DNA from: Armatimonadota bacterium
Lineage (GTDB): Bacteria > Armatimonadota > UBA5829 > DTJY01
Length of the DNA: 64,000 bases
NCBI GenBank assembly: GCA_035528905.1
Contig: DATKXU010000037.1
Coordinates: 7,860-71,859 of the forward strand
Direction of reading: 5' to 3'
The notes beneath the pieces were generated by a model that searched no databases, was not told the DNA's origin, and worked only from the letters and a program-made list of their open reading frames with translations. Shown here piece after piece: positions 3,308-55,435 of this stretch (the first letter of the stretch is position 1; each line of letters opens with the position of its first letter). The translations under genes and the position numbers were made by a program.

Positions 3308-3317
3308 CAAGACTCGA

Positions 3318-7540: not shown

Positions 7541-7628
7541 TCCAATGCCTCCTTGTTCTTGACTTGGCATGAAGGGCGCTCCGAAGTGGCAGATCGGCGA
7601 TGGCGGCAGTTCCCTTGCCACGGCTGCA

Positions 7629-8138
7629 TCAGTCGCGGCGCCAGTTGACTCGCAACAGCTTCGTATCCCGCGACCACTTGTACTCAACGTCTCCCGAATA
7701 CGACTTCCGCACGGCCCGGCCCAGCTTCTGCGCAAGCTTCTCGTTTGTCGTGAGCACGACCAGCCCAGCGTCAGACCGCTCTATATCCATTATACGCGCC
7801 AGGGGATTGGTTTGCATTGCCCTCCGGTTTTCGCGATTCAGGAGATTTACTATCTCACGCTCATGATGCTCCAGGAACGCACCGGAGAGGGCAAGCACGC
7901 CGCCGGGCAAACGGTCCTTTATCTTCCGGCAGCCCGGACACAATGTATCCACTAGGCGTTTCGCTCGTGCCAGATCGCGCGCCGCCTGACTCTCCAGCTC
8001 CCACCTGTGGCCTGCGTATACGGAGCGGCACTCCCGGCAGATTGCAACTTCATCGGGCTTCAAGTCCAGAAGGTAGGGGTCACCGGATGTCTTCACATTC
8101 CTGCGAATACGGACCAGCTTTTTGCGTGAGGTGATCAC
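7629..8138 (-). CDS. Zinc-ribbon protein with paired CxxC motifs (NMD3-like; function unknown)
   Basis: Two CxxC pairs are present: CRECRSVY...CPGCRKIK. The likely start is a GTG that sits 8 nt downstream of AGGAGG; the N-terminal part of the longer ORF-track version is low-complexity. The family assignment is tentative. Confidence 0.4.
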   Translation of the reverse strand: MITSRKKLVRIRRNVKTSGDPYLLDLKPDEVAICRECRSVYAGHRWELESQAARDLARAKRLVDTLCPGCRKIKDRLPGGVLALSGAFLEHHEREIVNLLNRENRRAMQTNPLARIMDIERSDAGLVVLTTNEKLAQKLGRAVRKSYSGDVEYKWSRDTKLLRVNWRRD

Positions 8139-27757: not shown

Positions 27758-30700
27758 ATGTCCGATAGAGAGCTGAGACTAGGCATTGATGTAGGATCGG
27801 TAAGTGTGAACGTGGCGGTTCTGGGCCGGGCGGCAGAAGTCCTGGAAACGCAGTACATCCGGCACAAGGGCCGGCCCATGCAAGTCGCCGCGGATGCAAT
27901 CGAGGAGATCGCGGCCAAGTATGCCGGGCGAATCAGGGGCTGTGCCGCAACCGGGATGGCCGGCAGGCTCGTTGCTGATGCGCTCGATGGCGTGTTCGTG
28001 AACGAGGTCATCGCACAGGCCGCCGCTGCCGCTTATCTTCACCCGGAGGCCCGGACGGTCATCGAGATCGGCGGCGAGGACTCCAAACTGATCTTCCTGA
28101 AGCCCGCGGAGGGCGGCGGCGCCGCCAGCATTGCCGATTTCCAGATGAATACCGTCTGCGCCGCCGGCACGGGCTCGTTCCTCGACCAGCAGGCCAGCAG
28201 GATGGGCTTGACGATAGAGGAGTTCGGGCAGCTCGCGCTCAAGTCGAAGAACCCGCCGCGGGTAGCCGGTAGATGCAGCGTCTTCGCCAAGAGCGATATG
28301 ATCCACCTCCAGCAGAAGGCCACTCCGGTCCACGACATCGTTGCCGGCCTATGCTTCGCACTGGCGCGCAATTTCAAGAGCACGGTCGGCGCTGCCCGCA
28401 AGTTCGAGAAGCCCATCGCCTTCCAGGGAGGCGTAGCGGCGAATCCGGGCATCGTGAAGGCGATGGAAGGCGTGCTCGGACTGTCCGAGGGCGAGCTCAT
28501 CATACCCAAGGAGTTCGGCTGTACAGGGGCCATCGGTGCTGTGCTGGTTGCGATGCGCACGGACGCAGCCCGCGAGTGCGAGCTCAGCGCGCTTGGCCGC
28601 CTGCGCGACGCCGGATTGGCCACACAGGAGAAACCAGCGGCGGAGAAGCCTCTGAAGATCGAGAAATCCGCGCTTCCGAAGGACCAGCCGTGCGCGCCGC
28701 CTCCTCATGAGCGCGTCCCCGCCTATCTCGGCGTGGATGTAGGTTCGATAAGCACGAATGTCGTAGTCCTCGACGCGAACAAGCAAGTTCTAGCAAAGCG
28801 CTATCTGATGACCGCGGGGCGCCCCATCGAGGCAGTGCGCCAGGGTCTGACAGAGGTCGGGGACGAGATCGGCCATCTGGTGGATATCCGCGGCGCATGC
28901 ACGACGGGCTCGGGCCGCTACCTCATCGCCGACTTTATAGGCGCAGACGTTGTCCGAAACGAGATCACCGCGCAGGCCAGAGCCGCTGGGGAGATTGACT
29001 CTGACGTTGACACCATCTTTGAGATCGGCGGCCAGGATTCGAAGTTCATCAGCCTGCATCAAGGGGCCATCGTGGACTTCGAGATGAACAAGGTCTGCGC
29101 CGCGGGCACAGGATCCTTCCTTGAAGAGCAGGCCGAGAAGCTCGCGATCAACATTAAGGAAGAATTCGGCAGGCTCGCGCTCTCTTCCGACTCGCCCCTC
29201 AACCTGGGGGAGCGGTGCACAGTGTTCATGGAGACAGAGCTGGTCCGCCATCAGCAAATCGGCGCGCCTACCGAGGACCTGGTCGCCGGGCTGAGCTATT
29301 CGATAGTCAGAAACTATCTGAATCGGGTCGTCGGCACGAAGCGTGTTGGCGACAGAATATTCTTCCAGGGTGGAGTTGCGTCGAACAAGGGCGTCGTGGC
29401 GGCATTCGAATCCGTCACCGGCAAACCAATCATCGTTCCGCAGCATCACGAGGTCACAGGCGCCATTGGGTGCGCCTGCATCGCAATGGACGAGGACAAA
29501 GGCGAGGGAAGCAGCTTCAAGGGGTTCGACCTGAGCCAGAAGCATTACGAAATCTCCTCGTTCGAGTGCAAGGAGTGCGCCAACCACTGTGAGATCAACC
29601 GTGTCGTCGTCGAGGGTGAAAAGCCGCTCTTCTACGGCAGCCGGTGCGAAAAGTACGACGTTGACCGTCGAGCGGCGGAGAAGGCCCAATTCCCCGATTA
29701 CTTTGCCGAGCGGGACGAGATGCTCCTGGAGCCATATACAGCCTCAGAGGCTACCAGCCCCGGCGCGATTCGCGTGGGCATTCCGCGCGCTCTGCTGTTC
29801 TACGAGCTTTATCCATTCTGGCAGGCGTTCTTGAAGGAGTTGGGCTGCGAGGTCGTCGTATCCGACGCAACGACCAAACGCATCATTCACGACGGCGCAG
29901 AGCGATCGGTAGCAGAGACCTGCTTCCCGATGAAAGTCGCGCTCGGCCATGTGCTGAACCTCCTGGACAAGGAGATTGACTGCATTTTCCTGCCGAGCGT
30001 CATCAATCTGCCGCTGCCGGACAAACGCATGACCGACAGCTTCGTCTGCCCATACGTGCAGAGCTTAGCCTACACGATCAAATCGGCGGTGGATTTCACG
30101 GCGGCGGGCATCAAGGTTCTGGAGCCGGTGGTCTATCTGCAGCTTGGCATGAAACACAAGATCAAGGCGCTCCAGCGGATCGGGCGTGATCTGGGGCGCT
30201 CGAAGGCTGAGGTAGCGCGCGCCGTCGCCGCGGCCGGGGAGAATCTCGCTAAGTTCCAGGCGAAACTGGCCGCACGAGGCAAGGAAGTCCTCGCCGAAAT
30301 CCCCCGGGGCGAAAAGGCGGTAGTAGTCATCGGCCGGTCATACAACACCTGCGATTCCGGCGCGAACCTGGAGATCCCGAAGAAGCTGAACAAGATGGGC
30401 GTGCGCTGCGTCCCAATAGACTTCCTGCCGCTCGATTCGGTTCACCTCCCTGATGAGTGGAAGAACATGTACTGGCGCTACGGGCAGAAGATTCTCTCGG
30501 CGGGCGAAATCGTGGCGGATGACAACAGGCTTTACCCGCTCTATCTGACGAACTTCGGCTGCGGGCCGGATTCGTTCGTGCACAAGTTCTTCCGCGAGCG
30601 CCTGGGCAGCAAGCCCTGCCTGGTCATCGAGGTTGACGAGCACAGCGCGGATGCCGGCATGATAACCCGCTGCGAGGCGTTCATGGACAGCATCGCCAAT

Positions 30701-31972
30701 ACGGACGGCTCCGCGGCCGGCGGACGATTCTTCCGCCCTGTCAACATCGAGAAAGGGACTCACCGGACTGTGCTCATTCCAAATATGAGCGCTCACGCTT
30801 ACGCACTGGCCGCAGCGTTCGAGGCGTGTGGCATGCGCGCAGAGGTACTTCCCCTGCCCGACGAAGAAACCCTCGAATGGGGCCGGCAATTCACGACCGG
30901 CAAGGAATGCTTCCCGTGCATAGTGACCACCGGCGACATGGTGAAGTTTGCGAAGCGGCCGGACTTCGACGGGAACAAATATGCGTTCTTCATGGGTGGA
31001 TCGGGCGGGCCGTGCAGATTCGGCCAGTACAACGCCCTCCAACGCATGGTGCTCGACCAGATCGGTTATCCGGATGTCCCAATCTACGCGCCGAACCAGG
31101 CATCCAGCTTCTACAACGACATAGGCATTGTCGGCCGAAAGCTCCTGGTGCAGGGCTGGAAGGGCATCATCGCCATGGACTTGCTTGAGAAGTGCGTGCG
31201 CGAGACGAGGCCGTATGAGGTAGCCAAGGGATCGGCAAATGAGGCATTCGAGCGATCCGTAATGCTGGTCTACGAAGCCATTAAGAACCAGACAGACCTT
31301 GTACACGCGCTTCGGGAGTGCCGGAAGCTCTTCGAGGCCGTTCAGGTGGATCGCAGCGTGCAGAAGCCGATCATCGGCTACATCGGCGAGTTCTACGTTC
31401 GCGCCAACGCCTTCAGCAACCAGGACCTCATCAGCAAGATCGAAGAGCTGGGCGGAGAGGTCTGGGCCGCGCCGATTCTGGAATGGTTCCTCTACCGCAA
31501 CGTCCGCCGGAGCATGCGCGCCCGGCTCGCAGGCGACTTCAAGTTGTGGATCAAGAACCATTTGCAGGACTACATCATGAGGCGCCAGGAGCACGAACTC
31601 GCGCATGTATTCCACGGCTTCCTGCGGAATCTGGACGAGCCTTCAAGCGACGAGGTTCTCGATATGGCCGGGCCTTACGTCCACAGGAGCTTCGAGGGCG
31701 AGGCGATCATGACGGTCGGCAAGGCGGTGGACTTCATCAAGAAGGGCCTGTCCGGCGTCGTGGCCGTGATGCCGTTCACGTGCATGCCGGGGACGATTGC
31801 GAACGCGCTCTTGAAGCGGGTGCGCGAGGAGCTGGGCGAGTTCCCGTTCCTGAACATGGTCTACGACGGCGTCGAGCAGGGCACGGACGCGACGCGCCTG
31901 GAAGCGTTCACGCACCAGGCCCGCGAGTACATGAAGCGCCAGGCCGGGGATATGGCGCCTGTTGGAAAATGA
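27758..31972 (+). CDS. Fused acyl-CoA dehydratase activase-like protein: two BadF/BadG/BcrA/BcrD-type ATPase domains followed by two 2-hydroxyglutaryl-CoA dehydratase D-component (HgdB)-like domains
   Basis: The ATPase motifs LGIDVGSVSVNVAVL and LGVDVGSISTNVVVLD start two repeated domains, each containing CAAGTGSFL. The C-terminal ~750 aa is DUF2229/HgdB-like. Total length is 1404 aa. Confidence 0.75.
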   Translation: MSDRELRLGIDVGSVSVNVAVLGRAAEVLETQYIRHKGRPMQVAADAIEEIAAKYAGRIRGCAATGMAGRLVADALDGVFVNEVIAQAAAAAYLHPEARTVIEIGGEDSKLIFLKPAEGGGAASIADFQMNTVCAAGTGSFLDQQASRMGLTIEEFGQLALKSKNPPRVAGRCSVFAKSDMIHLQQKATPVHDIVAGLCFALARNFKSTVGAARKFEKPIAFQGGVAANPGIVKAMEGVLGLSEGELIIPKEFGCTGAIGAVLVAMRTDAARECELSALGRLRDAGLATQEKPAAEKPLKIEKSALPKDQPCAPPPHERVPAYLGVDVGSISTNVVVLDANKQVLAKRYLMTAGRPIEAVRQGLTEVGDEIGHLVDIRGACTTGSGRYLIADFIGADVVRNEITAQARAAGEIDSDVDTIFEIGGQDSKFISLHQGAIVDFEMNKVCAAGTGSFLEEQAEKLAINIKEEFGRLALSSDSPLNLGERCTVFMETELVRHQQIGAPTEDLVAGLSYSIVRNYLNRVVGTKRVGDRIFFQGGVASNKGVVAAFESVTGKPIIVPQHHEVTGAIGCACIAMDEDKGEGSSFKGFDLSQKHYEISSFECKECANHCEINRVVVEGEKPLFYGSRCEKYDVDRRAAEKAQFPDYFAERDEMLLEPYTASEATSPGAIRVGIPRALLFYELYPFWQAFLKELGCEVVVSDATTKRIIHDGAERSVAETCFPMKVALGHVLNLLDKEIDCIFLPSVINLPLPDKRMTDSFVCPYVQSLAYTIKSAVDFTAAGIKVLEPVVYLQLGMKHKIKALQRIGRDLGRSKAEVARAVAAAGENLAKFQAKLAARGKEVLAEIPRGEKAVVVIGRSYNTCDSGANLEIPKKLNKMGVRCVPIDFLPLDSVHLPDEWKNMYWRYGQKILSAGEIVADDNRLYPLYLTNFGCGPDSFVHKFFRERLGSKPCLVIEVDEHSADAGMITRCEAFMDSIANTDGSAAGGRFFRPVNIEKGTHRTVLIPNMSAHAYALAAAFEACGMRAEVLPLPDEETLEWGRQFTTGKECFPCIVTTGDMVKFAKRPDFDGNKYAFFMGGSGGPCRFGQYNALQRMVLDQIGYPDVPIYAPNQASSFYNDIGIVGRKLLVQGWKGIIAMDLLEKCVRETRPYEVAKGSANEAFERSVMLVYEAIKNQTDLVHALRECRKLFEAVQVDRSVQKPIIGYIGEFYVRANAFSNQDLISKIEELGGEVWAAPILEWFLYRNVRRSMRARLAGDFKLWIKNHLQDYIMRRQEHELAHVFHGFLRNLDEPSSDEVLDMAGPYVHRSFEGEAIMTVGKAVDFIKKGLSGVVAVMPFTCMPGTIANALLKRVREELGEFPFLNMVYDGVEQGTDATRLEAFTHQAREYMKRQAGDMAPVGK

Positions 31973-32266: not shown

Positions 32267-33556
32267 ATGAACAACATTCGAGCACTGCTGTGGATACTGC
32301 TGGTGTGCGCCATACTGTGCGTGAGTCTCAATGCTTCGGGGGCGCAGACCGCCGTGCCCACGTCCCGCTTCAATGTGCGGGAGTACGGCGCAGTAGGCGA
32401 CGGGAAGGCGGACGACACCGCCGCATTTCAGAAGGCGCTGGACGCTGCCGCCGCCGAAGGTGGGGGAACCGCCTTCGTCCCAACGGGCAACTACCTGATA
32501 AAGACGCACCTATCCATCCCCGGCCACGTGACTCTGGAGGGCATCTGGACGATGCCGCCTGCCTGGGCCAAGGGGAGTTGTTTGCTTGCTGTAGAAGGAA
32601 AAGGGAAAGCGGACGGCCCGCCCTTCATATCGCTCATGGGACAGAATGCCACGTTGAAGGGCTTGGTCATCAATTACCCGGAGCAACCTAGGGAAGGCAC
32701 CGCTCCCATCCCTTACCCCTGGACGGTTAAGCACATCGCCGGCGATAACTGCTCCATCATAGACGTGCTGATCGCGAACCCGTATCAGGCCGTGGACTTC
32801 ACCGGCGCGGCGCGGCATTATATCCGCAACCTGTACGGCCAGCCGCTCTTCAAGGGCATCTACGTTGACCAGTGCTACGACGTTGGAAGGATCGAGAACG
32901 TTCACTTCTGGCCGTTTGGAGTGACCTGGAAGGCGGGAGAGGGTCTGAGCAAGTGGATGAGCGAGAATGCCACCGCATTCATCTTCGGCCGCACCGACTG
33001 GCAGTATGTGACCAACACATTCTGCTTCGGCTACAAGATCGGATATCATTGGATCAGAACGCAGTCAGGTAGGAGTAACGGCAATTACCTCGGCATCGGG
33101 GCGGACTGGTGCATAAATCCGGTAGTAGTGGACGACGTCGAGCTGTTCGGAACGCTGATCACGAACGGCGAATTCGTCGCCATGACTACCCCGAAGGCCA
33201 CGAGCGTCCTGGTGAACGATTCCAACAAGGGCGTCGTGAACTTCCAGAACTGCTCTTTCTGGGGAGCGTCGGATCGGATTGCCAGCATCGGCGGGCGCGG
33301 CGCGGTCACGTTCACCGGCTGCAATTTCATGCAGTGGGACAAGAACAGGACGGGCCGGTACGCAATCAGCGTCCGCGGCGGGCGGCTGACCGTGTCCGGG
33401 TGCTACTTCCAGGACTTCGAGGGCAACAAGAAGGACGTGGAGATTCTCGCCGGCACGAAGTCCGCCGTCATAATGGGCAACCAGTCGGTCGGCAAGTTCG
33501 AGGTCAAGAACGAGATCGGCGAGAAAGCCCAGATCGGCCTGAACGTGGGGGAATAG
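32267..33556 (+). CDS. Right-handed beta-helix glycoside hydrolase (pectate-lyase superfamily, GH28/GH55-like), secreted
   Basis: NVREYGAVGDGKADDTAAFQKAL is the pectate_lyase_3 / GH28-type N-terminal motif. A signal peptide is present (MNNIRALLWILLVCAILCVSLNASGAQ). Start is the ATG at 32267, preceded by GGAGG. Confidence 0.6.
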   Translation: MNNIRALLWILLVCAILCVSLNASGAQTAVPTSRFNVREYGAVGDGKADDTAAFQKALDAAAAEGGGTAFVPTGNYLIKTHLSIPGHVTLEGIWTMPPAWAKGSCLLAVEGKGKADGPPFISLMGQNATLKGLVINYPEQPREGTAPIPYPWTVKHIAGDNCSIIDVLIANPYQAVDFTGAARHYIRNLYGQPLFKGIYVDQCYDVGRIENVHFWPFGVTWKAGEGLSKWMSENATAFIFGRTDWQYVTNTFCFGYKIGYHWIRTQSGRSNGNYLGIGADWCINPVVVDDVELFGTLITNGEFVAMTTPKATSVLVNDSNKGVVNFQNCSFWGASDRIASIGGRGAVTFTGCNFMQWDKNRTGRYAISVRGGRLTVSGCYFQDFEGNKKDVEILAGTKSAVIMGNQSVGKFEVKNEIGEKAQIGLNVGE

Positions 33557-33585
33557 ACGGTCGGGTTGACCCAACCCCCCGGTAG

Positions 33586-33614
33586 TTGAACCCCAAAGCA
33601 ATCAGGCGTATAAT
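33586..33614 (+). promoter_or_regulatory. Near-consensus sigma70 promoter TTGAAC-17 nt-TATAAT driving the KAP NTPase gene
   Basis: TTGAAC is at 33586-33591 and TATAAT at 33609-33614, with an exact 17-nt spacer. A GGGGTG ribosome-binding site lies 6 nt before the ATG at 33653. Confidence 0.5.
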
Positions 33615-33652
33615 TAGAGAAATCTAGCAGATTCGCCCATGGGGTGACTGGT

Positions 33653-35698
33653 ATGAGACGGAAATCGCCGGACGAGCGGAAAGCCAGGTACGAAAAACTG
33701 ATCCTCGGGCCGCCGGGCATCACCGCCGTGAGCGACCACGCCCTGGCACACGAAGAGTATTACCTCGACACCTTCGATTTGACATACCGGCTGGGGCCGG
33801 TCCTCGACATCATCCGCCATCCGAAAACCCGCACGCCGATGTGCATCGCCGTTTACGGCGGCTGGGGCACCGGCAAGACCTCCGCCATGAAGTGGCTCCA
33901 CGGCCTGCTGGAAGACTCGAATAAGTCGGGCACCTCCGAAGCCAAAATGAGGGTGAAGCCGGTCTGGTTCTTTCCGTGGAAGTACCGCAGCAAGGAGGAT
34001 GTCTGGCGGGGCCTCATCTCCGAAGTCATAATCAACAGCATAGATGTGAGCAAGGCCAACCGCGTGACCATCGCCAACGCAGCTAAGCAGTTTGGGATGT
34101 TCCTGGGGAGGGGTTTCGTCCACGTGATGGCAGGCCTGACGCTCAAGGCCAAGGCTCCGACAGGGGCGGGCGAAGCAGAACTGGACCTGTCGCGGCTTGA
34201 GGACATAATTGCTGAATACCGCGAAATCTCTCACCCCGAGAAAGCTTACCTGAACGAATTCGAGTCGTCCCTCCAAAACTGGGTGTCGAGCACTCTCCTT
34301 CGCAACGAGCGCATGGTTATCTTCATTGACGATCTCGACCGGTGCATGCCGGATGTGGCGTTGGAGGTGCTGGAGGCGCTGAAGCTCTACCTCAACATCG
34401 AGAAGCTCGTGTTCGTGGTCGGCGTTGACCAAAAAGTCATTGATCCGCTGGTGAGCGAATACTACAAGCGACTCGGGCTGCCGGGCGACAAGAGCAAGGA
34501 CTACCTGGCGAAGATGTTCCAGATAGAGGTCGAGCTCGCGCCTCACGAAAGGCAGATCAGCGGTTTCCTGGACCAGCAACTGGAAACCATCGAGTACTGG
34601 CGGAAGCACCTGGAGGACTACGAGCGCGATATCTTCCGGAAGGCGATACTGCAGCTTGCCGAGCAGAATCCGCGCGAGGTCAAGCGCCTCATCAACAGCG
34701 CGCTGATGGCGGGCGCCGGGTGGCTGATGCTGACCGAACCCGGCAGCGAGGAGAATGAGATAGGCTTCAACCAGGCGCTCCAGTACTTCTTTATCCGCAA
34801 GGTTCTGGACGTGGGGTACACCAGGGCATCGCTTCTCACGACCGACCTGGGCGATCGGTTCTTCAGGGAGTGGTCGGAGATCGTGTCGAGCCGCAGAGAC
34901 AACGAGCACTTCCCGCGCACCCTGGATGTCCCGAAATCATTCATCGAGCAGCAGCGCGCCAGCGCCGGCAAGCGCCCCGGCACAGCAACGGACGAGGAAA
35001 AGCCCTCGGCCGAAACCAAACCCTCCGACTTCGATCCCACGCAGGTTGCAGGCGGTGTCTACTACAGCATCCTGACGAACAGCCTGTATACGGACTTGCT
35101 TCCGCTCCTGGCGGATGAACTACTCGGAGAGCTGATGCAAATTCCGTACCCGGCGGAGACGAAGGCGATCAGCGCTGCCATCGGCACGGCAAAGGACGCC
35201 GAGATCATTCGCGAGGCCGTTGCCCGTGAGCTAGGAAAGAAGCCGGACCAATTGAGGGCTGAGGATTACGCCAATCTGGAGGCGCTTAATCTCAGAGACA
35301 CCCAGGTGAGTGACGTCGAGCCGCTCAGGGGGCTCACCAATCTGGAGGCGCTTAATCTCAGAGACACCCAGGTGAGTGACGCCGAGCCGCTGAGTCGCCT
35401 CACCAATCTGCAGGAACTCAGTCTCTCGAGCACACGGGTGAGCGACATCGAGCCGCTGAGTCGCCTCACCAATCTGCAGGATCTTGGTCTCACTGACACC
35501 CAGGTGAGCGACATCGAGCCGCTCAGGGGGCTCACCAACCTGCAGGAGCTCCGTCTCTCGGGCACCCAGGTGAGCGACATCGAGCCGCTCAGGGGGCTCA
35601 CCAACCTGCAGGAGCTCTATCTCTCCGGCACCCAGGTGAGCAAGGAACAGGTGAAGTCCCTTAAGGAAGCGCTGCCCGGTCTAAAAATCACGGTGTGA
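33653..35698 (+). CDS. KAP-family P-loop NTPase fused to C-terminal leucine-rich repeats
   Basis: The Walker A motif is CIAVYGGWGTGKTS and the KAP-type Walker B is VIFIDDLDRC. The C-terminus carries six 22-aa LRR units of the form LTNLQELxLSxTQVSDIEPLxG. Confidence 0.8.
   Translation: MRRKSPDERKARYEKLILGPPGITAVSDHALAHEEYYLDTFDLTYRLGPVLDIIRHPKTRTPMCIAVYGGWGTGKTSAMKWLHGLLEDSNKSGTSEAKMRVKPVWFFPWKYRSKEDVWRGLISEVIINSIDVSKANRVTIANAAKQFGMFLGRGFVHVMAGLTLKAKAPTGAGEAELDLSRLEDIIAEYREISHPEKAYLNEFESSLQNWVSSTLLRNERMVIFIDDLDRCMPDVALEVLEALKLYLNIEKLVFVVGVDQKVIDPLVSEYYKRLGLPGDKSKDYLAKMFQIEVELAPHERQISGFLDQQLETIEYWRKHLEDYERDIFRKAILQLAEQNPREVKRLINSALMAGAGWLMLTEPGSEENEIGFNQALQYFFIRKVLDVGYTRASLLTTDLGDRFFREWSEIVSSRRDNEHFPRTLDVPKSFIEQQRASAGKRPGTATDEEKPSAETKPSDFDPTQVAGGVYYSILTNSLYTDLLPLLADELLGELMQIPYPAETKAISAAIGTAKDAEIIREAVARELGKKPDQLRAEDYANLEALNLRDTQVSDVEPLRGLTNLEALNLRDTQVSDAEPLSRLTNLQELSLSSTRVSDIEPLSRLTNLQDLGLTDTQVSDIEPLRGLTNLQELRLSGTQVSDIEPLRGLTNLQELYLSGTQVSKEQVKSLKEALPGLKITV
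35279..35650 (+). repeat. Six tandem 66-bp near-identical repeats encoding the LRR units
   Basis: The repeats start at 35279, 35345, 35411, 35477, 35543 and 35609. Neighbouring copies differ at only a few positions. Confidence 0.75.
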
Positions 35699-35935
35699 CA
35701 GCGGCGGGCGGGGAGAGCAAGAAGCCAGTCACAGTTCCTTTTCCCTTGGGCGGAGTTGGCCTAACCCCCAGCCCCCTCGACCCTTCGGCAAGCTCAGGAC
35801 AGGCAAACTCAGGGCAGGCCTTCCCGAAACGGGAAGGGGGAATACGCCGTTGGGAGTAGGATCGGGATAACATAAGTCATCGCGAGCGGACAACGCCGAG
35901 GCCGGAACGAATGAATGGGTAAGCTTTGCGGCGCC

Positions 35936-36169
35936 TCACAGCTTTTCGAGTTCCCGCGCGAATTCCGCCGGGGTCAACTCGATCTCTCGGAGTATTTCTC
36001 GAACCAAGGGGCGGGCCAGGTCGCGGTTGGCATGATGCGGAACGGTTGTCGCTCTGCCATCAGCATGACGGTAGAATACATGGCTTCCCTTGCGACGCGC
36101 GGGTTTGAACCCAACGCGAAGGAGCAGCTTATCCATAGTCTTGCTGTTGACAACCGGGAGGCGGGTCAC
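35936..36169 (-). CDS. hicA: HicA-family mRNA interferase toxin (type II TA)
   Basis: KLLLRVGFKPARRKGSHVFYRH matches the HicA/YcfA fold. The GTG start overlaps the hicB stop (GTGA). An alternative ATG start lies at 36136. Confidence 0.75.
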   Translation of the reverse strand: MTRLPVVNSKTMDKLLLRVGFKPARRKGSHVFYRHADGRATTVPHHANRDLARPLVREILREIELTPAEFARELEKL

Positions 36170-36384
36170 GCTGCGACCTCTATCTGCTGCAACCCCACAA
36201 ACCTGGGCAGGTTCTCAAGCGGCCCCTCATACTCCTCAAGGCACAGCTCGAGAACCTCTTTCAGATTGGCGCGGAGTTCGTCCAGAGTAGCTGCCTGGGT
36301 ATGCGCGCCTGGAATCCCAGGGATCATCCCCACATACAAACTCGACTCCGGATCCCACTCGACATAGGCCGTAAAAGTCCTCAT
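36166..36384 (-). CDS. hicB: HicB-family antitoxin (UPF0150)
   Basis: The 72-aa product MRTFTAYVEWDPESSLYVGMIPGIPGAHTQAATLDELRANLKEVLELCLEE is HicB-like. Start is the ATG at 36382-36384; the longer ORF-track version is an upstream extension lacking a ribosome-binding site. Confidence 0.7.
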   Translation of the reverse strand: MRTFTAYVEWDPESSLYVGMIPGIPGAHTQAATLDELRANLKEVLELCLEEYEGPLENLPRFVGLQQIEVAA

Positions 36385-36463
36385 TGCGAACCTCTTCCCA
36401 CGTCTGAATATGCCATTAAACCAATTCGACGATTCCAGATGGCTTTCCTGCCCGAAACACTGG

Positions 36464-38312: not shown

Positions 38313-39155
38313 CTACCAGCTTCGGGCAACCAGCGGTATCCCAGATCGCTCCCGGAGCGAGATCGCGCCGCTGCTGCATCCGGCTCGGCACACTCCGCAT
38401 CCGTAACATTTCAGCGTGTCAATGTACGCCTTCCGGTCGGCCCAGCTAAAGCCCATTGCGCCGAACTGGCAGAGCCGCATGCAAGCGCGGCATCCAGTAC
38501 AAGAATCACGGTCAAGCACCGCGACATACTCGCCCTTGAACATCATCTTCACGCCGTGTCCCACCGTGGCCCTCATGGCGGCGCAGTCGGAGCGGTCGCA
38601 GTTGCAGATACCGCCGATAAAAGGCGTTCCGAACGTCCAGACGGAATGCATCAAACCGTCCTTCTCCAGCTCTCGCATGAAGCTCAGGGCCTCAGCGGGC
38701 GTCAGCTTGTCCATACCGTCAGTATCCGGGCCGCGCCAGTAGCTCGGGTCTACTACCTCACCGATCATGCCAGCGTCTGGGGACGCGCTTACACCCAGGC
38801 AGCAGTGAACCTCTCTTCCCACAGTGAGCCTCCGGCAGACGCACGGCACGCGGACGATGGAATTCACTATCTGGAATATGCTTTCGATATCCTCGATCGG
38901 CACCACCTGGCCGAAATGCCCTTTCTTGTGCCTGAGAGTCAAAAATGAGGCGACCAGATGCCTGACAGGACGCGGCAGCTTGGGAAGTACCTTCTCCATG
39001 CGCTCCAAGTCCCTGCCCAGCCCGTCCTCAAAGTAATTGAACCACCACTGGGTTTCCTTCCGGCGATGGACGTCAGCCGCCAAATCGTCGGAGTAGTTCT
39101 TCGCCTGCAGGTACCATTTCTTGCCGTCACCATGCTTTGCGCAGAATTCACACAT
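38313..39155 (-). CDS. Cys-rich 4Fe-4S dicluster-domain protein of unknown function
   Basis: The C-terminal region has CTGCRACMRLC and CYGCGVCRAGC (two CxxCxxCxxxC-like motifs). There are additional N-terminal Cys pairs (MCEFCAKHGDG, PCVCRR, HCC). Confidence 0.5.
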   Translation of the reverse strand: MCEFCAKHGDGKKWYLQAKNYSDDLAADVHRRKETQWWFNYFEDGLGRDLERMEKVLPKLPRPVRHLVASFLTLRHKKGHFGQVVPIEDIESIFQIVNSIVRVPCVCRRLTVGREVHCCLGVSASPDAGMIGEVVDPSYWRGPDTDGMDKLTPAEALSFMRELEKDGLMHSVWTFGTPFIGGICNCDRSDCAAMRATVGHGVKMMFKGEYVAVLDRDSCTGCRACMRLCQFGAMGFSWADRKAYIDTLKCYGCGVCRAGCSSGAISLRERSGIPLVARSW

Positions 39156-48587: not shown

Positions 48588-51056
48588 TTATCGGCCGCGT
48601 GTTCCGACGCCCCGGGCGGCGAGGCGGCGTTCTTCTTCCTCTTCTTTCTTCTCCTCGGCGGGGGCTATGCCGTACTCTTTCAGCTTCTCCGCGAACTCCT
48701 GAAGCTTGCGGTTGACGCGGCCGTGGACGCTGTCCGGCGGGTAAGTGCCCTGCGCGTCCTTCTCCCCCGCCGCAATGCCCGTGAGGATTTCGATCCCCTC
48801 GTCTATCGTTTTGACCGGCCACACATGGAATGTGCCTTGGCGCACCGCGTCTACGACCTCTTCCTTGAGCATCAGGTGCCGCACATTCTGGTGTGGGATC
48901 ATCACGCCCTGACTCCCGGTGAGCCCCTTCGCCTTGCAGACCTCGTAGAAGCCTTCTACCTTCTGGATGACTCCGCCGATCGGCTGGATTTCGCCATTCT
49001 GATTGACGGAGCCTGTAACCGCGATGTCCTGCCTTATCGAGAGATCCGCCAGGCTGGAGAGCAGTGCGTAAAGCTCCGTGCTGGAGGCGCTGTCGCCCTC
49101 GACCTCTTCATAAAGCTGCTCGAACGTCAGGCTCGCGCCGAGCGGAAGCGGCCTGTCCTCGGCGTACTTGCCCGCCATGTACCCGGAGAGGATCAGTACT
49201 CCCTTATGGTGGATCGGGCCGCTCATCTTCGTCTCGCGCTCGATATTCGTGACGCCGGTCTTGCCGATGTAGGTGCGGGCGGTTATGCGGGACGGGCGGC
49301 CGAATGTGTAGTCGCCGATGCTGTACACGGAGAGCCCGTTCACCTGGCCGACCTTCGCACCCTCCGTGTCTATCATGATCACGCCTTCCTCGATCAGCTC
49401 CTGAATCTTCTGCTCGATCAGGTTCGAGCGGTACACCTTCTCATCTATCGCCTTTTGTACGTCCCCGGCCATTACGTACTTGTTTCCGTTCTGCGCCGCC
49501 CAGTAGCTCGATTCGCTGACCATATCGGCGATCTCGATAAACCGGGTCGAGAGCTTCTCTTTGTCCTGGATCAGGCGGGAGCCGTATTCGACGATCTTCG
49601 CGACGCCGGTCTTGTGGAACGGCCTCAGATTGGCCTCCCGGATTCGCGCATTGATGAACTGAGCGTATTTCTCGATGTGCTCATCCGAGCGGCTCATTTC
49701 TGTGTCGAAATCCGCCTTGACCTTGAAGAGCTTCCGGAAATCCTCCTCGAAGGCGTATAGCAGATGGTAGATGTATGGACTGCCAATCAGGATGACCTTC
49801 ACCTTCACGGGGATCGGCTCCGGCTTCAACGTAGACGTGGGGATAAGGCCATAGTACTCCGCGATGTTCTCTATTCGGGCCTCGCTGCTTCGGAGCGTTC
49901 GTTTCAAGGCATCCCATGACATGGAATTGGTAAGGACATCCATGGCCTGCAGTATGAGATAGCCGCCATTCGCCTTATGCAGCGCGCCCGCCTTGATTTG
50001 CGTAAAGTCGGTCACCAGCGCGCCAAGCCGCGCCCTGAAATCCACCCGACCGATCAGGTTATAGTAGGTTGGGTTGTTCTCGCATACGACTGGGGCACCC
50101 TGCTGGTCCTGATTGTCCACGATTAGATTGACCTTGTACCTATCGAACGACGGCTCTGGCACCAGGCCCTCAAGCCCTGGGATCGCCAACTTGGGCCTTT
50201 CCTTCGCCTTGAAATCCTCCAGGCTGTCCATCATGTTGGCCTGGACCTGCTGGAGATAATCAATGACCTCGTCGTATTCCCGGTACTTGGTTCTCAGCTC
50301 GTCGAGCGGATGGCCGACTGCGAACATACCAACCTCCCGATCCAACTGCTCGATTGCATCGCTGCTCCCCTTTTCCAACTTCCGAGCCTTTGCCAAGCCC
50401 TGCTGGATCAGGTCTTGAAGCTCCTGGCTGCGTCTCTCAATCTCTGCTCGCTGAGACCCGGGCAAACGCTCGAAGTCTTCCCTGGAAATCGGCTTCCCAT
50501 GCACCAGAGGGATTGTCACGATCCCAATCTGCGTCATTTCGATGGCGAGGTCCAATTTCCCAGCCTCCCGCTCAAGCCCGCTCAGCATCCGGCTGCGCTC
50601 CTGCTGCACCTCGTTCAGTATGTCATTCTTCCGCTTCTCGTAATTCTCGCTCTCGAAGGCACGGGGAATCTCCGTCTTGGCGGCCTCTACCAGCTCATCC
50701 ATGTCCTTTACGAGCTGGCATCCCATCCCGGCGGGAAGTATTATCGCATCGGGGCTATCGGATTCCTTGAAGTTGTGCACGTAGCACAGATCGTCGGGCA
50801 CCGGCTCCTTCTTGGCCTGCTCTGTGACGAAAGCCTGAACAGTCTTACTCCTCCCGGTACCCGTAAGCCCGGCAACGAAGAGGTTGAACCCGTGTGTCTT
50901 TATATCGAAACCGAACTGGATGGCGCTGACTCCTCTGTCCTGACCAACAGTCCCCAGCAGCTCTTCGACCTCGTCCGTCGTCTCAAACTTGAACCGGTTT
51001 GGGTCGCAGAAGTTCCTCAATTGCTCTGCCGGAACTTCCGGATATTGCCGTGCCAT
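48588..51056 (-). CDS. Lon-related ATP-dependent protease (AAA+ N-terminal domain plus S16 Lon proteolytic domain)
   Basis: The C-terminal Lon_C features are present (HHKG...GDSASS...VTGSVNQNGEIQPIGGV). The N-terminal P-loop is GLTGTGRSKT. Start is the ATG at 51054-51056, with a GGGGG tract 8 nt upstream. Confidence 0.65.
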   Translation of the reverse strand: MARQYPEVPAEQLRNFCDPNRFKFETTDEVEELLGTVGQDRGVSAIQFGFDIKTHGFNLFVAGLTGTGRSKTVQAFVTEQAKKEPVPDDLCYVHNFKESDSPDAIILPAGMGCQLVKDMDELVEAAKTEIPRAFESENYEKRKNDILNEVQQERSRMLSGLEREAGKLDLAIEMTQIGIVTIPLVHGKPISREDFERLPGSQRAEIERRSQELQDLIQQGLAKARKLEKGSSDAIEQLDREVGMFAVGHPLDELRTKYREYDEVIDYLQQVQANMMDSLEDFKAKERPKLAIPGLEGLVPEPSFDRYKVNLIVDNQDQQGAPVVCENNPTYYNLIGRVDFRARLGALVTDFTQIKAGALHKANGGYLILQAMDVLTNSMSWDALKRTLRSSEARIENIAEYYGLIPTSTLKPEPIPVKVKVILIGSPYIYHLLYAFEEDFRKLFKVKADFDTEMSRSDEHIEKYAQFINARIREANLRPFHKTGVAKIVEYGSRLIQDKEKLSTRFIEIADMVSESSYWAAQNGNKYVMAGDVQKAIDEKVYRSNLIEQKIQELIEEGVIMIDTEGAKVGQVNGLSVYSIGDYTFGRPSRITARTYIGKTGVTNIERETKMSGPIHHKGVLILSGYMAGKYAEDRPLPLGASLTFEQLYEEVEGDSASSTELYALLSSLADLSIRQDIAVTGSVNQNGEIQPIGGVIQKVEGFYEVCKAKGLTGSQGVMIPHQNVRHLMLKEEVVDAVRQGTFHVWPVKTIDEGIEILTGIAAGEKDAQGTYPPDSVHGRVNRKLQEFAEKLKEYGIAPAEEKKEEEEERRLAARGVGTRGR

Positions 51057-51241
51057 GTGCTTTCCCCCAAGCTCGCCGGATTCCGGGCATGCAGCCGTTC
51101 TCAGAATACCCCGCAGTTTCACCCCGCGAAACCGCACTGATGGCTGCGCAACCGGGCGATTGAACCGTTTTATGAGATGCCAAACGGGGTAATTCAGCGC
51201 AAGGGGTTGCTTGACTTCGGCCGCCGCTTCGGAGCTTCGGA

Positions 51242-54200
51242 ATGCGTTCCAAGATGCCACTTCTCATAGTAGTTGTCGCACTGTTGATTCTGGGTCTGAT
51301 TGTATCCTTCGGTGTCGCATACCGCCTTCGGCAACTGGCATCCAGTCTCCCCAACGTCCTCGAGAACGAGCTGGAGGCGCGCTTAGACAGACAAGCAAGA
51401 GTCGGCTCGGTGAAGTTGGCATCGCCAAGCACCGCCGTCATCACCGATCTTCGCATCGCCAGCGGAGAAACATTTGCTCAGGGCACTTTGTTCTCCGCAC
51501 GCCGTGCAACCGTGCGCTTCAGAGTCATTGACCTCCTAACAGGCCGCCTACCCGTCGCGCGAAGCATAACCTCGGTAACGCTGGCTGGTCCGAGTGTCCG
51601 GCTCGTGAGGGACCGCAACGGGGTTTGGGACATCGAGGATCTGCTGCGGCGACCCCCGATCCCACCCGCACAGCGCTTTCGAGCCCTGATTCGCGTCCGT
51701 TCGGGTAGGCTGACCATTGTGGATTATGCCGCGCGAGTTCGGCAGCTTCCGGCCGTGAACAGCTTGAACTCGGTGTCTGGGTACGTTAACCTGGCGCCGG
51801 CCCAGTCGGCTCTCATAGACCTTTCAGGTAGAGGCGACCGCCAACGAGTGACAGGCGTTCAGGCGTCAGGCCGATGGGGAATCGGCGCTCCGGTGACCCA
51901 TCTCAACCTTTCCATCCAGGAGGCCGACGCTGAGTACTGGCTTGATTACTTTGCGAACATCCGCGGCTGGAATATCGCGGGAGGCAAGGCCGACGCGCGA
52001 GCCATTCTCTCGCAGCCGCACGGCGCAGGCATAGTCGCCAAAGGATCCGCGACACTTCGGGACTCGGCGATCACTAGCCCTTATCTCTCCATCCCAGTGC
52101 GGCCGTTTGGGGCGAAGATCGCATTCGTCGGAACGGACCTCAGCCTCGCGGCACGGGGCCTTCTGCGCGAGTCGCCAATCTCAATCCGAGGCCAAATCAT
52201 TGGCTTTCATCCCGGAAGGCTGAATCTGCATATTGCGTCGGAGCGGATGAATCTGGCTGTACTGCAGAACGCGATCAGGCCACTCCCCGCGCTACCGCAG
52301 GTTCGATGGCCTATGCCCGGCGTCGTGAGCGCAAGGGTCACTGGAAACGCCCAAAGGCCCATGGTGACAGGTGTTATTCGGGTTCCGCACGCCGCAGCGT
52401 ACGGCACACCGCTGACATCGCTGACCGCGCAAGGCCACTTCCGAGACGGTACAATCTTTGTCACCAGCGTGACCGGGCGCGCCGCCGGCGGAAGCATCAG
52501 ATTATCGGCGGCGATCGGCCTCCAGCCGGTGCGCATAAAAGCACAGGGGACCGCCGCACGCATCAACCTAGCTGCCCTGCCGATACCGGGAAACATCCGG
52601 GCCGCAGGTCTGGCGGACGCACGGTTTGCCCTGGATTACTTCCACAGATTGCGGTGGGCCCGCGTGTCCGCGGAGATAGCACAGCCGAGAGTAGCAGATC
52701 TCGCCTTTGACCGAGGAAGCGCCAATGTCGTATTGACCGGCCCACGCACAGCGCGGGCGAGGTTGAGATTGAGCCGCGGCGCCATCAGAGGCGCGGAAAT
52801 CGAAGCGGCGGCGGCAGACTTGGCTCTGCGCGAGCGTACAGTTTTCTTACAGAGGGTGGCCGTTGACGCTTTCCAGGGAGCGTTGAGCGCTCAGGGTACT
52901 GCAATGCTCGATGGAATCTTGAACCTGCGCGTATCAGGCACGGGAATTGATCTTCGCACACTGCCGGGCTACGAGCAGCTCACAGGAACAGCCAGCTTCA
53001 CGGGAAGCGTGAACGGCACGTTGAGCAGTCCTCGTCTGACGGCCCGGGTGACCGCGCGCGACGGGCAGATACGGCAGGTCCGATACGACGCGATGACGGC
53101 TCGTCTCGTCGCGACACCGCAGCTCCTTGCGCTCGAAGATGCGGCCATACGACTTGAGCAGGGCGAGGTCACAACCACGGGTCGGATCACTTTTGCCAAG
53201 AGGGCTGCGGCGCGTGTTGAATTACTGATGCGCGCACGCGAGGTAAATCTTGCGCGAGTGCTCCCACTCGTCGGAGTGTCAGCCGGCGCCCAGGGAATCG
53301 CTAACGCCGATCTGGATATACGAGGTCAGCTTCCCAATATCCGGGCCTCCGGCGAGGCATCGGTGACGGACGGCGCTATCGCCGATGTTCCCTTTGATCT
53401 AGTCCGGGCCCGTCTCCAATTCCGAAACGGGCGCACCGCGATAACGGAGTTAGTCGCGCAGAGAGGGGAGATGCAGCTCACGGGAGGCGGATCTATTGGC
53501 CCGCAGGGAGATCTTCAAATGAGCCTGACAGGTGAAAACCTGCGCCTGAGCCTCCTCAACCAGATTGTCTCTCGATACATCGAACTCGAAGGGCCGATGA
53601 CTTTCACAGGCGAGGTGGCAGGAACTCTCAGGTCCCCGGCGATACGCGGCATCATCGCCTCGACACAGCCGGTGATAAACGGCCGGCAATTCAAATCGCT
53701 AGCCGCCGATCTGCGGCTGGTTGAGGGCACAGCCATCCTGGATCAGCTGGTCATTTCGCCGCCGCAGGGGCAAGTTCTCGTCCAGGGCACGATCAATCCC
53801 GAAGGACTGGTCTCGCTGACAGGACAGATCGCGGACTTCCCTCTTGCGACTCTCCGGCCCTGGGTTGGCATGGAATCGCTGACAGGAACGCTGGATGCTT
53901 CATTTGCGGTGGGCGGTCCCGCCGACAGCCCGACCGTTCGAGCTTCCGCTTCGGCGAGAGACTTCACAACGCCGCGAATATCAATCGAGCGCATCGCCGC
54001 AGAGCAGGTCACAATCGCGGGCGGACGTCTGTCCTCCACCGGCGTTGTCGCCCAGGCAAACGGCAGCCAGCTCCTCCTCTCCGGCTCGCTGCCGTTCGTC
54101 TGGGCCGCACCGTATGTCCCGCGCGACCAGCCCGTACTCCTGCACGCCGAGCTTCCAGACCAAGACCTTGCAATACTACAAACGTTGAGCCCCGCGGTTG

Positions 54201-55435
54201 AGAACGCGCGCGGCGCCCTTATGGCCGCCGTAGACGTGACAGGCACGCTCGACCAGCCCGTCTTCGACGGCCAGGCGACCCTACACGATAGCTTCCTGAG
54301 GGTCAAGGGTCTTGAGAATGACCTGACCAACATTGGATTAGCAGCCAGATTCCAGGATTCCAGCCTGGTGATACAGAGTCTCAGCGGAGCATCCTCGCTT
54401 GGCGGGACCTTTTCCGGCAGCGGGAGTCTTGCTCTCTCCGGCACTGCCGGGGGCATGCTGACGGCCTTGCTAACGCTGGACGGGCTGCGCCTTGACGTCA
54501 CCAGCACAGCCGCCGAGCAACTGGTGTTCACCACCACCGGCCAATTGCTGCTGAGCGAAACGCTCAAGTCACCGCTGGTCCAGGGGCAACTGGTGGTCAG
54601 AGACGCGCGCATCCGCGTTCCCGCCGAGACGGTCACAACGACAGCGGCCGTTCCGTATCTTCCCGTCAGTCCTGAACTAGCCATCACGGTAGACCTGGCT
54701 CGCGATGTCGTCGTGGAGCGGGGCACTCTCAGGGCGGAAGTCGCGGGACCGGTGGCCGTGACGGGGACATTGATCCGTCCCGTGATTGCCGGAACTGTGC
54801 AGATCGCGGACGGGCGCTTGAGCTATCTCGGCCGGACTTTGCAGCTCCAGCCCGGCGGAACCGCTTCACTGCTCCTGAGTCCTGCCCGGCCACCCATGAT
54901 AAGCCTGGACCTGACTGCGGTAACCCGCGTCTCGGCGCCATCGCCCGTCACAGGGCTGTTCACACGCTACACGCTCACACTCGACATTGCGGGACCGATT
55001 GGAAACCTCGACATAGGCGTGCGCAGCAGTCCGCCCGGCCTCTCGGACGTCGAGGCTCTGAGGCTCGTGTTCCGCGGCACCGCGCTGGACGCCCTCATCG
55101 CCGGAAGGCCGTTCGACCAGTTCTTCCAAGAGCAACTCGGGCAAGTCCTCTTAGGGTTAGCCCTACCTCGTGTCTTTGAGCCGTTCCAAATCGAGGGGCT
55201 TGTCTTCGTCCTCGAACCCGGCTTCGATATCCCGCTTGCGTTTACCGTGAGTACGCCGCTTGCAGAGCGACTGATCTTGTCGTACAGTCGCTCGGTGGTG
55301 GCAGCGTCGCCATTCGACGTGATCTCCTTCGGTTACATCCTAAGGCCGGAGTTGGCACTCACAGTCCAATTTCGAGGTCTGAACAGGACCCTACAGGAGA
55401 CGTCATACCTCTTGGGGTACTTCCGGCGCTTCTAA
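51242..55435 (+). CDS. TamB/AsmA-like translocation-and-assembly-module protein (DUF490 C-terminus)
   Basis: The 1397-aa product has an N-terminal transmembrane anchor (MPLLIVVVALLILGLIVSF). The long beta-rich repetitive body resembles TamB. Confidence 0.65.
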   Translation: MRSKMPLLIVVVALLILGLIVSFGVAYRLRQLASSLPNVLENELEARLDRQARVGSVKLASPSTAVITDLRIASGETFAQGTLFSARRATVRFRVIDLLTGRLPVARSITSVTLAGPSVRLVRDRNGVWDIEDLLRRPPIPPAQRFRALIRVRSGRLTIVDYAARVRQLPAVNSLNSVSGYVNLAPAQSALIDLSGRGDRQRVTGVQASGRWGIGAPVTHLNLSIQEADAEYWLDYFANIRGWNIAGGKADARAILSQPHGAGIVAKGSATLRDSAITSPYLSIPVRPFGAKIAFVGTDLSLAARGLLRESPISIRGQIIGFHPGRLNLHIASERMNLAVLQNAIRPLPALPQVRWPMPGVVSARVTGNAQRPMVTGVIRVPHAAAYGTPLTSLTAQGHFRDGTIFVTSVTGRAAGGSIRLSAAIGLQPVRIKAQGTAARINLAALPIPGNIRAAGLADARFALDYFHRLRWARVSAEIAQPRVADLAFDRGSANVVLTGPRTARARLRLSRGAIRGAEIEAAAADLALRERTVFLQRVAVDAFQGALSAQGTAMLDGILNLRVSGTGIDLRTLPGYEQLTGTASFTGSVNGTLSSPRLTARVTARDGQIRQVRYDAMTARLVATPQLLALEDAAIRLEQGEVTTTGRITFAKRAAARVELLMRAREVNLARVLPLVGVSAGAQGIANADLDIRGQLPNIRASGEASVTDGAIADVPFDLVRARLQFRNGRTAITELVAQRGEMQLTGGGSIGPQGDLQMSLTGENLRLSLLNQIVSRYIELEGPMTFTGEVAGTLRSPAIRGIIASTQPVINGRQFKSLAADLRLVEGTAILDQLVISPPQGQVLVQGTINPEGLVSLTGQIADFPLATLRPWVGMESLTGTLDASFAVGGPADSPTVRASASARDFTTPRISIERIAAEQVTIAGGRLSSTGVVAQANGSQLLLSGSLPFVWAAPYVPRDQPVLLHAELPDQDLAILQTLSPAVENARGALMAAVDVTGTLDQPVFDGQATLHDSFLRVKGLENDLTNIGLAARFQDSSLVIQSLSGASSLGGTFSGSGSLALSGTAGGMLTALLTLDGLRLDVTSTAAEQLVFTTTGQLLLSETLKSPLVQGQLVVRDARIRVPAETVTTTAAVPYLPVSPELAITVDLARDVVVERGTLRAEVAGPVAVTGTLIRPVIAGTVQIADGRLSYLGRTLQLQPGGTASLLLSPARPPMISLDLTAVTRVSAPSPVTGLFTRYTLTLDIAGPIGNLDIGVRSSPPGLSDVEALRLVFRGTALDALIAGRPFDQFFQEQLGQVLLGLALPRVFEPFQIEGLVFVLEPGFDIPLAFTVSTPLAERLILSYSRSVVAASPFDVISFGYILRPELALTVQFRGLNRTLQETSYLLGYFRRF

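Follow-up and report, generated by a model that had tools for sequence, protein, structure and literature searches.

We analysed a 64,000-nucleotide stretch of contig DATKXU010000037.1 from an Armatimonadota bacterium (the window, to whose positions all coordinates refer) and identified in it a genuine gene, here called KAP-LRR, that joins a KAP-type ATPase to a leucine-rich-repeat (LRR) domain. To judge from its sequence, KAP-LRR belongs to a large, uncharacterised bacterial family that appears to be built like an innate-immune receptor. Our preferred reading, to which we assign a probability of about 0.5, is that the product is a soluble, single-polypeptide molecular switch resembling the nucleotide-binding leucine-rich-repeat (NLR) receptors, built on a chassis with exchangeable modules. 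The observations that support an NLR-like sensor are the swapping of modules across the family, the contrast in selection between the NTPase core and the LRR surface, the varying number of LRRs, and the existence of TIR and helix-turn-helix (HTH) variants in mobile-element contexts.

The reading frame of KAP-LRR lies on the forward strand, could open at GTG 33644 or ATG 33653, and ends at 35698 (Table 1). We use the ATG, which yields a protein of 681 aa, because the database homologues P0001 and P0002 begin at this residue (MRRKSPD...). Only about 55 aa precede the P-loop. The Pfam KAP_NTPase model matches aa 54-352 with 120.7 bits against a cutoff of 20 (E=9.8e-35), and the runner-up P-loop families, AAA_22 (21.4 bits) and AAA_16 (20.6 bits), both fall under their own cutoffs. 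A first-pass annotation of this DNA had read the core as a KAP-family NTPase from its GGWGTGKTS and IDDLDR motifs, and this assignment is upheld: in the comparison with other P-loop families, set beforehand, KAP is far ahead. The Walker A, Walker B and NPREVKR motifs are invariant across an alignment of 58 homologues, the invariant residues being G69, G72, G74, K75, D226, D227, D229, R230, R341 and R345, and by these motifs the NTPase is predicted to be catalytically intact. In the Pfam scan the protein has no match to NACHT or NB-ARC at E<=1, matches none of the STAND families, and contains no Roc or COR domain.

A poorly ordered helical insert separates the Walker motifs, with an amphipathic helix and disorder at aa 130-200. 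Hydropathy analysis gives neither a transmembrane segment (maximum 19-residue Kyte-Doolittle hydropathy 1.31) nor an N-terminal hydrophobic segment or signal peptide. Since no transmembrane helix lies inside the NTPase domain, KAP-LRR is a soluble KAP variant, unlike many KAP NTPases; the protein is soluble and cytoplasmic, and a membrane-inserted KAP is ruled out by hydropathy. Behind the NTPase are two helical modules specific to the family, divided by a disordered and variable linker at aa 440-464, the second of which carries, just ahead of the LRRs, the conserved motifs LLxDxxLGxLMxIxYP and IIREAIARxLxKxP. The C-terminus consists of six exact 22-residue copies of the consensus NLxxLxLxxTQVSDxEPLxxLT followed by a cap (LRR_4 E=3e-28, LRR_8 E=3e-10), so that the six-repeat, internalin-like array described in the first-pass annotation is also borne out.

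An AF2 model of the protein reached a pLDDT of 83.5 and a pTM of 0.79, with pLDDT <50 at aa 167-179 and 193-197 in the insert between the Walker motifs. The nearest solved folds to the N-terminal 530 aa of the model are Cdc6/Orc1 (E=1.5e-5) and RdrA of the RADAR system (E=1.9e-5, TM 0.36), with TnsC and RFC also among them, and the whole model gives low-TM full-length alignments to a wheat NLR resistosome and NOD2. At the sequence level, a PDB profile search with the N-terminal module yielded only a marginal match to RdrA (E=0.17). The PDB sequences closest to the repeats are Internalin A and the CtRoco LRR, with fold-alignment identities of ~43% to Internalin A and 38-43% to the Chlorobium tepidum Roco LRR. 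Because the N-terminal fold is RdrA-like and RdrA has been solved as heptameric rings, an oligomerising-switch mechanism is supported by analogy.

The family is large and widespread. A word-indexed search with KAP-LRR returned 967 matches, of which >120 are full-length; the best 120 are full-length KAP+LRR proteins with 38-94% identity. When the N-terminal 530 aa served as the query of an exhaustive phmmer search, representatives of 50% identity clusters numbered 216 at E<=1e-30, and at the looser limit of E<=1e-10 there were 5,334. The subfamily, of some 200 clusters, is centred on Planctomycetota and other PVC-group bacteria and extends to Armatimonadota, Myxococcota and others. Taxonomy was read from 39 loci in species-representative genomes, among which the window's own species does not figure. 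Most of these loci are from Planctomycetota (Phycisphaerae, Sedimentisphaerales, Pirellulales), with the remainder from Verrucomicrobiota, Armatimonadota, Hydrogenedentes, Haliangium, Desulfobacterales, Alphaproteobacteria and Anaerolineales; mostly one copy was detected per genome. Homologues are named by NCBI and JGI only "P-loop NTPase fold protein" or "LRR domain-containing protein". The fusion had been proposed as previously undescribed. It is not unique, with >900 homologues annotated generically. Literature searches yielded no description of a KAP-LRR fusion.

We surveyed the C-terminal modules of the family in the best 150 of the 216 representatives, each of which matches at E<1e-66 and aligns over aa ~10-410/530 with 37-68% identity, for the most part 40-55%. 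The module is usually an LRR of one of several classes; in five proteins it is an FGE-sulfatase domain (e.g. P0242, E=8e-51), in one a TIR_2 domain (P0251, E=6.6e-21), and in two, P0300 and P0302 (L054:118-2607), DnaB_C (RecA-like helicase C-terminal) stands in place of the LRR. These module-swapped relatives are 40-51% identical to KAP-LRR over aa ~10-410/520, and in P0242 the alignment extends to aa 521, indicating that the FGE-sulfatase variant retains the second helical module. At the N-terminal end, 6 of 120 homologues (~5%) carry an XRE HTH; LRR copy number across homologues ranges from 0 to 19. FGE-sulfatase (FGS) domains and repeats such as LRRs are the two "antigen receptor-type" sensor classes of bacterial NACHT immune proteins (bioRxiv 10.1101/2022.07.19.500537), and both FGS and TIR are found repeatedly in conflict systems that depend on NTP (PMC7159879).

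Two of the variants lie in mobile-element contexts. The KAP-TIR relative P0251 (L052:8001-9941) is directly downstream of inovirus/plasmid-like genes (2396-7908), including Phage_coatGP8, DUF5455, Zot, Rep_1 and Rep3, and looks like defence-type cargo on a filamentous-phage-like element. The surroundings of the XRE-HTH-KAP-LRR variant P0030 (966 aa; L048/L049:8001-10901) are prophage-like, with ParB_N, DUF1376 and a Terminase_6C-like gene as well as numerous small open reading frames.

We then compared the window with L002, a locus that together with L003 represents a sister lineage; the proteins encoded by the flanking genes share 71-92% identity between this lineage and the window. The ratio of nonsynonymous to synonymous divergence (dN/dS) is 0.07-0.19 in flanking genes and 0.09 in the KAP core (dN 0.018), and rises to 0.39-0.48 in the middle domain, linker and LRR (LRR 0.40). 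Within the LRR, 26/28 residues differ at positions 4, 6, 8 and 9, which are predicted to form the concave face, against 21/126 at framework positions (Fisher p=1.7e-14). The surface codons have dN 0.96 and dS 0.69, a dN/dS of ~1.4 that rests on 28 codons in repeats that are perhaps not positionally orthologous; the framework has a dN/dS of 0.21. The KAP core is thus under strong purifying selection while the LRR surface residues have turned over almost completely. The first-pass annotation had likened an NTPase plus a repeat sensor to NLR logic, and this likeness is supported by the swapping of LRR, FGE-sulfatase and TIR modules, the hypervariable LRR surface and the conserved NTPase core.

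Repeat number also differs within a strain. L001 is a locus of the same strain as the window (99.9% nucleotide identity over 22 kb, nearly all flanking proteins 100% identical), and it encodes 8 LRRs (L001:11620-12178) where the window encodes 6 (35273-35698). The in-frame 132-bp indel corresponds to two 66-bp units and is the only substantial difference between the two sequences; it reflects either genuine variation in repeat number or near-identical repeats that were collapsed during assembly. Divergence from L002 is uneven along the DNA as well, with nucleotide identities of 83-88% in the flanks, 92-97% at ~32855-34580 and 76-82% in the linker and LRR. Inside the low-divergence tract are the 3' half of the Pect-lyase gene, the promoter with its leader, and the KAP core. 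Synonymous divergence (dS) is 0.19 in the KAP core, 0.19-0.33 in the tract and 0.55-1.0 in the flanks, a pattern that suggests either that the 5' part was recently exchanged by homologous recombination or that synonymous sites are constrained at the nucleotide level.

These features can be combined into a candidate mechanism for the NLR-like switch, a single polypeptide in which a KAP NTPase is followed by the family-specific helical domains and then by the LRR solenoid. The variable concave face of the LRR would bind a protein ligand, probably from an invading element, and binding would relieve autoinhibition of the NTPase. The KAP NTPase would then exchange or hydrolyse nucleotide and oligomerise, as RdrA and Cdc6/ORC-type ATPases do. 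Candidate outputs are NTP consumption, sequestration of the ligand, or action through an unlinked partner. Ligand sensing, oligomerisation and an immune role are predictions of this model, and a defence function for KAP-LRR is plausible.

The genomic context of the homologues does not add to this case. We called genes in 43 loci and the window and compared them by all-versus-all blastp. No family of neighbouring genes occurs in >4 of ~40 non-redundant loci, a result that rules out a conserved operon partner for KAP-LRR, and neither hicAB nor any other partner recurs beside it across 38 loci, in keeping with its earlier description as a stand-alone gene. PADLOC was used for a semi-quantitative scan of 242 neighbours within ±4 genes in 38 non-redundant loci. 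Among the 129 neighbours at ±2 genes no family was matched by >1 protein, and among the 113 at ±3-4 genes a weak mad1 match (E=4e-8) occurred twice and each other family once. The defence matches were isolated, each to a single protein: strong ones to MADS-like components, PDC-S28 and a type II REase (REase_II), and one to a kinase. The matches appear to occur at about the background density of defence genes, an estimate made without a matched control. Pfam assigns most of the neighbours housekeeping functions (SHMT, FBA, ATP synthase, chaperonin, GARS, RNase E/G), and no KAP-LRR relatives were found in 2.9 million viral contigs. The enrichment of homologues in defence islands for which the neighbourhood check was run is therefore not observed: there is no clustering, and the guilt-by-association case fails across the 38 loci.

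At the locus itself, KAP-LRR is flanked by GH42, Pect-lyase_RHGA_epim, heparinase II/III, GH57 and GH14/42-like genes, a BcrAD_BadFG/DUF2229 activase gene and hicB-hicA, confirming the setting of polysaccharide-degradation genes and hicAB first reported for it. The hicAB assignment is based on a HicA toxin domain (HicA_toxin 59.3 bits, cutoff 27, E=4e-16) and an upstream HicB-like gene that overlaps hicA by 4 nt (36166-36169). The hicB product scores 28.6 bits against UPF0150 (cutoff 27.3) and 23.8 against HicB_lk_antitox, under the cutoff of 27 (UPF0150/HicB_lk E=1e-6). The first-pass annotation took KAP-LRR and hicAB together as a small defence islet inserted horizontally into a carbohydrate-active enzyme (CAZyme) cluster. 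The two are adjacent, the codon-usage scores of hicBA are low, and the KAP NTPases include PifA, QatA and RdrA, all of which would suit such an islet. It is contradicted by synteny. The gene order Pect-lyase, KAP-LRR, GH42 is common to the window and L002/L003, with co-linear flanking genes, and L002 and L003 lack both hicBA and a Fer4 gene (38313-39155 in the window). The hicBA genes and a ~770-bp intergenic region (35699-36463) are present in the window and L001 and missing in L002, in which the distance from KAP-LRR to GH42 is 26 bp. KAP-LRR occupies the same place in L002 although hicBA is missing there, and hicBA is therefore a variable cassette beside a gene that has been kept in place. 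It is an independent, later insertion, separate from the KAP-LRR unit.

KAP-LRR has a host-like codon-usage log-odds of 189 and the GC content is flat across its region (0.59-0.60), and these values, together with the synteny with L001 and L002, rule out a recent insertion of the gene. No integrase or transposase is found among the neighbouring genes, and PADLOC gives no meaningful match in the ten genes nearest KAP-LRR. The window also carries core genes for MutS, MutL, MiaB, SelA, XseAB, a Lon-like protease, TamB and an alpha-2-macroglobulin, and is ordinary core chromosome. The terms "inserted" and "defence islet" therefore both have to be dropped, and we regard the islet explanation as very unlikely. 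In its lineage KAP-LRR is a stably inherited, syntenic, vertically kept chromosomal gene. The next-closest homologue of the adjacent Pect-lyase (P0122, 68% identity) lies in an unrelated context and is uninformative on the presence of KAP-LRR.

Several of these results weigh against an immune, NLR-like role. Besides the sparse defence matches among neighbours of the homologues, the housekeeping surroundings and the empty viral contigs, they include the syntenic, host-like status of the gene and the conservation of the chassis, which at 40-55% identity across phyla and 95-97% nucleotide identity between the window and the sister lineage is unusually high for a defence gene. Matches in PADLOC and NCBIfam to PDC-S20, QatA and PifA are confined to the NTPase core. 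No effector domain is recognised in the protein by Pfam scan or in the model. The surface dN/dS has the limits given above, and LRRs in general vary at their x positions.

The main rival to the NLR-like model draws on much of the same evidence. It holds that KAP-LRR is a non-immune regulatory or scaffolding NTPase, whose LRR would bind an endogenous host protein and whose KAP domain would act as a housekeeping or signalling switch; the relatives with an HTH would then be ligand-controlled transcription factors, like MalT. A regulatory NTPase would fit the non-defence, mainly housekeeping neighbourhoods of the homologues, the synteny and host-like codon usage, the very strong conservation of the NTPase core, promoter and leader, the mainly single copy detected per genome, the lack of copies in the viral contigs scanned, and the fusion of an XRE HTH in ~5% of homologues. 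However, the predicted binding surface has changed almost wholly between sisters whose flanking proteins are ~90% identical, and a near-complete change of this kind fits poorly with a fixed endogenous partner. C-terminal swaps to TIR and FGE-sulfatase are typical of conflict systems (PMC7159879), two variants sit in mobile-element contexts, and the family is patchily distributed, its members in different phyla being 40-55% identical. On balance, we consider a non-immune regulatory or scaffolding role somewhat unlikely.

The likeness of the repeats to Internalin A raises another alternative, in which KAP-LRR would be an internalin-like adhesin, secreted or exposed at the surface, by which the cell attaches to polysaccharide or host cells. 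The neighbouring glycoside hydrolase and lyase genes would be in line with it. Such a protein would be expected to differ from KAP-LRR in several respects: there is no signal peptide or transmembrane segment, its first 350 aa are an intact P-loop NTPase of cytoplasmic type, and the CAZyme context is not kept in other lineages. In addition, the NCBIfam InlA model for class 1 internalins scores 95 bits, far under its cutoff of 1600, and only the LRR aligns. An adhesin is the least probable of the explanations considered here, and highly improbable.

Comparison with known systems places the NLR-like model in context. The best PADLOC match of KAP-LRR is the candidate system PDC-S20 (E=2.3e-28), with profile positions 37-281 of 464 aligned to aa 62-320 and no full-length match. 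PifA of the F plasmid shares the KAP core over profile positions 33-312 of 720 only (PADLOC E=6e-16) and has no LRR. QatA of QatABCD likewise shares the core (PADLOC E=7e-24; NCBIfam NF041923 100.6 bits against a cutoff of 600, core only) and lacks an LRR, and none of its partners qatBCD (QueC-like, TatD-like) is found beside KAP-LRR. RdrA, which PDB entry 8fnu names a "KAP NTPase domain-containing protein", forms heptameric rings; it differs from KAP-LRR in its marginal sequence similarity, in its pairing with the adenosine deaminase RdrB, and in having no LRR, and no RdrB-like gene is found among the neighbours of KAP-LRR. From its domain matches, KAP-LRR is assigned to the KAP family and apparently not to PifA, QatA, PDC-S20, STAND or the internalins.

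In overall plan, the bNACHT (e.g. the LRR-bearing bNACHT16) and Avs proteins are alike in having a central NTPase followed by a C-terminal LRR or FGS module, with TIR as an alternative. They are unlike KAP-LRR in that its NTPase is a KAP domain, not NACHT or NB-ARC, that most members of its family are without an N-terminal effector, and that no association with defence islands is seen in the 38 loci. Of the tripartite NLR plan, KAP-LRR has the NTPase and the C-terminal LRR, and relatives carry an N-terminal XRE HTH or a C-terminal TIR. Among proteins that join a repeat array and a P-loop NTPase in one polypeptide are also the eukaryotic KAP protein Kidins220/ARMS and the Roco/LRRK proteins. 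Kidins220 is a four-transmembrane membrane protein with N-terminal ankyrin repeats, and Roco proteins combine a Roc GTPase and a COR domain with an N-terminal LRR.

A further comparison is with EF_KAP and its relatives, single-gene KAP P-loop NTPases with diverse C-terminal regions that protect Enterococcus from phage, defence by EF_KAP requiring both the Walker B motif and the C-terminal region (PLoS Biol 2026, PMC13552941). EF_KAP and KAP-LRR are alike as stand-alone KAP NTPases with a variable C-terminal region. The EF_KAP-type proteins are from Firmicutes and have transmembrane helices and a C-terminus without a recognisable domain, whereas KAP-LRR is soluble with a defined LRR. KAP-LRR is best filed as a soluble, LRR-bearing variant of the single-gene KAP-NTPase sensors, with a predicted sensor role.

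We also put forward, tentatively and with less confidence than the NLR-like switch itself, that the KAP-LRR subfamily is an independent bacterial invention of an "NTPase plus LRR" immune receptor on a soluble KAP NTPase. Such a receptor may have exchangeable sensors (LRR classes, FGE-sulfatase) and a fast-evolving binding face, and could have a new output, be it NTP consumption, stoichiometric neutralisation of an invader protein or an unlinked partner. Since the genes are scattered singly in core chromosomes of Planctomycetota and other members of the Planctomycetota-Verrucomicrobiota-Chlamydiota (PVC) group and in other environmental bacteria, discovery through defence islands would miss them.

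If the NLR-like reading is true, bacterial pattern-recognition receptors would have a chassis in KAP as well as STAND NTPases, in clear convergence on the NTPase-LRR design of plant and animal NLRs. A widespread immune receptor would then have been overlooked by defence-island approaches because it lies alone among housekeeping genes in phyla that have been little studied. If it is wrong, the family remains a large, conserved, uncharacterised NTPase switch of PVC bacteria. In either case the family offers natural experiments: one chassis with LRR, FGE-sulfatase, TIR or DnaB_C modules, variants in repeat number within a strain, and sister alleles with nearly all surface residues changed.

Table 1. 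Features of the KAP-LRR locus, in window coordinates.
Feature	Coordinates	Strand	Remarks
Sigma-70-like promoter motif TTGAAC-17 nt-TATAAT	33586..33614	+	10/12 consensus matches; putative function
5' leader	33615..33652	+	G-rich Shine-Dalgarno-like run GGGG 33641-33644, 9-12 nt before ATG
KAP-LRR coding sequence	33653..35698	+	681 aa + stop; ATG start
KAP-family P-loop NTPase domain	33803..34699	+	Pfam PF07693 E=9.8e-35
Walker A GGWGTGKTS	33857-33883	+	In KAP NTPase domain
Walker B IFIDDLDR	34319-34342	+	In KAP NTPase domain
NPREVKR arginine motif	34667-34687	+	Distal, in KAP NTPase domain
Family-specific helical modules	34718..35272	+	aa 356-439 and 465-540; from secondary structure, pLDDT, conservation
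Six 22-aa internalin-type LRRs (66-bp DNA units) + C-terminal cap SKEQVKSLKEALPGLKITV	35273..35695	+	
hicB-hicA toxin-antitoxin pair	35936..36384	-	hicA 35936-36169, hicB 36166-36384; adjacent, convergent to KAP-LRR

Upstream of the gene, the TTGAAC-17-TATAAT promoter pointed out in the first-pass annotation is present 39 nt before the ATG. As a bare motif count it is not significant (2 sites per 5 kb versus 1.3 expected). In the sister lineage L002 the motif is kept as TTGAAT...TATAAT and the leader differs at only 2 positions, unlike the rest of the intergenic region, which is rearranged. We therefore list the site as a putative promoter.

Some homologues appear to be interrupted. In 5 of ~38 genomes (L021, L022, L024, L029, L030) the KAP-LRR homologue is split into 2-3 adjacent open reading frames, which lie near position 10000 and, in L029, at 1450-3460. 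The splits mark either pseudogenes with frameshifts or errors in assembly; some of the contigs, judged by their names alone, may be long-read assemblies. One identical protein, P0102, was found in 59 blocks of the collection, and in the three shorter assemblies L045-L047 the contigs break ~290-390 bp upstream of its gene, pointing to a repeated or variable element at that place.

Other genes of the window also have unusual features. Amid the CAZyme genes, 27758-31972 (+) encodes a 1404-aa protein with two BcrAD_BadFG ATPase modules and a DUF2229 "CoA enzyme activase" domain, a homologue of which lies ~3 kb from KAP-LRR in the Armatimonadota locus L010. The selenocysteine synthase gene selA (SelA, 5669-7081 (-), E=1e-146) implies that the organism uses selenocysteine. 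Finally, 57831-62447 (-) encodes a 1538-aa bacterial alpha-2-macroglobulin with MG2, MG3, bait-region, TED and receptor-binding domains, near genes for a 1397-aa TamB/AsmA-like protein (51242-55435) and a LonB/LonC-like protease (48588-51260).

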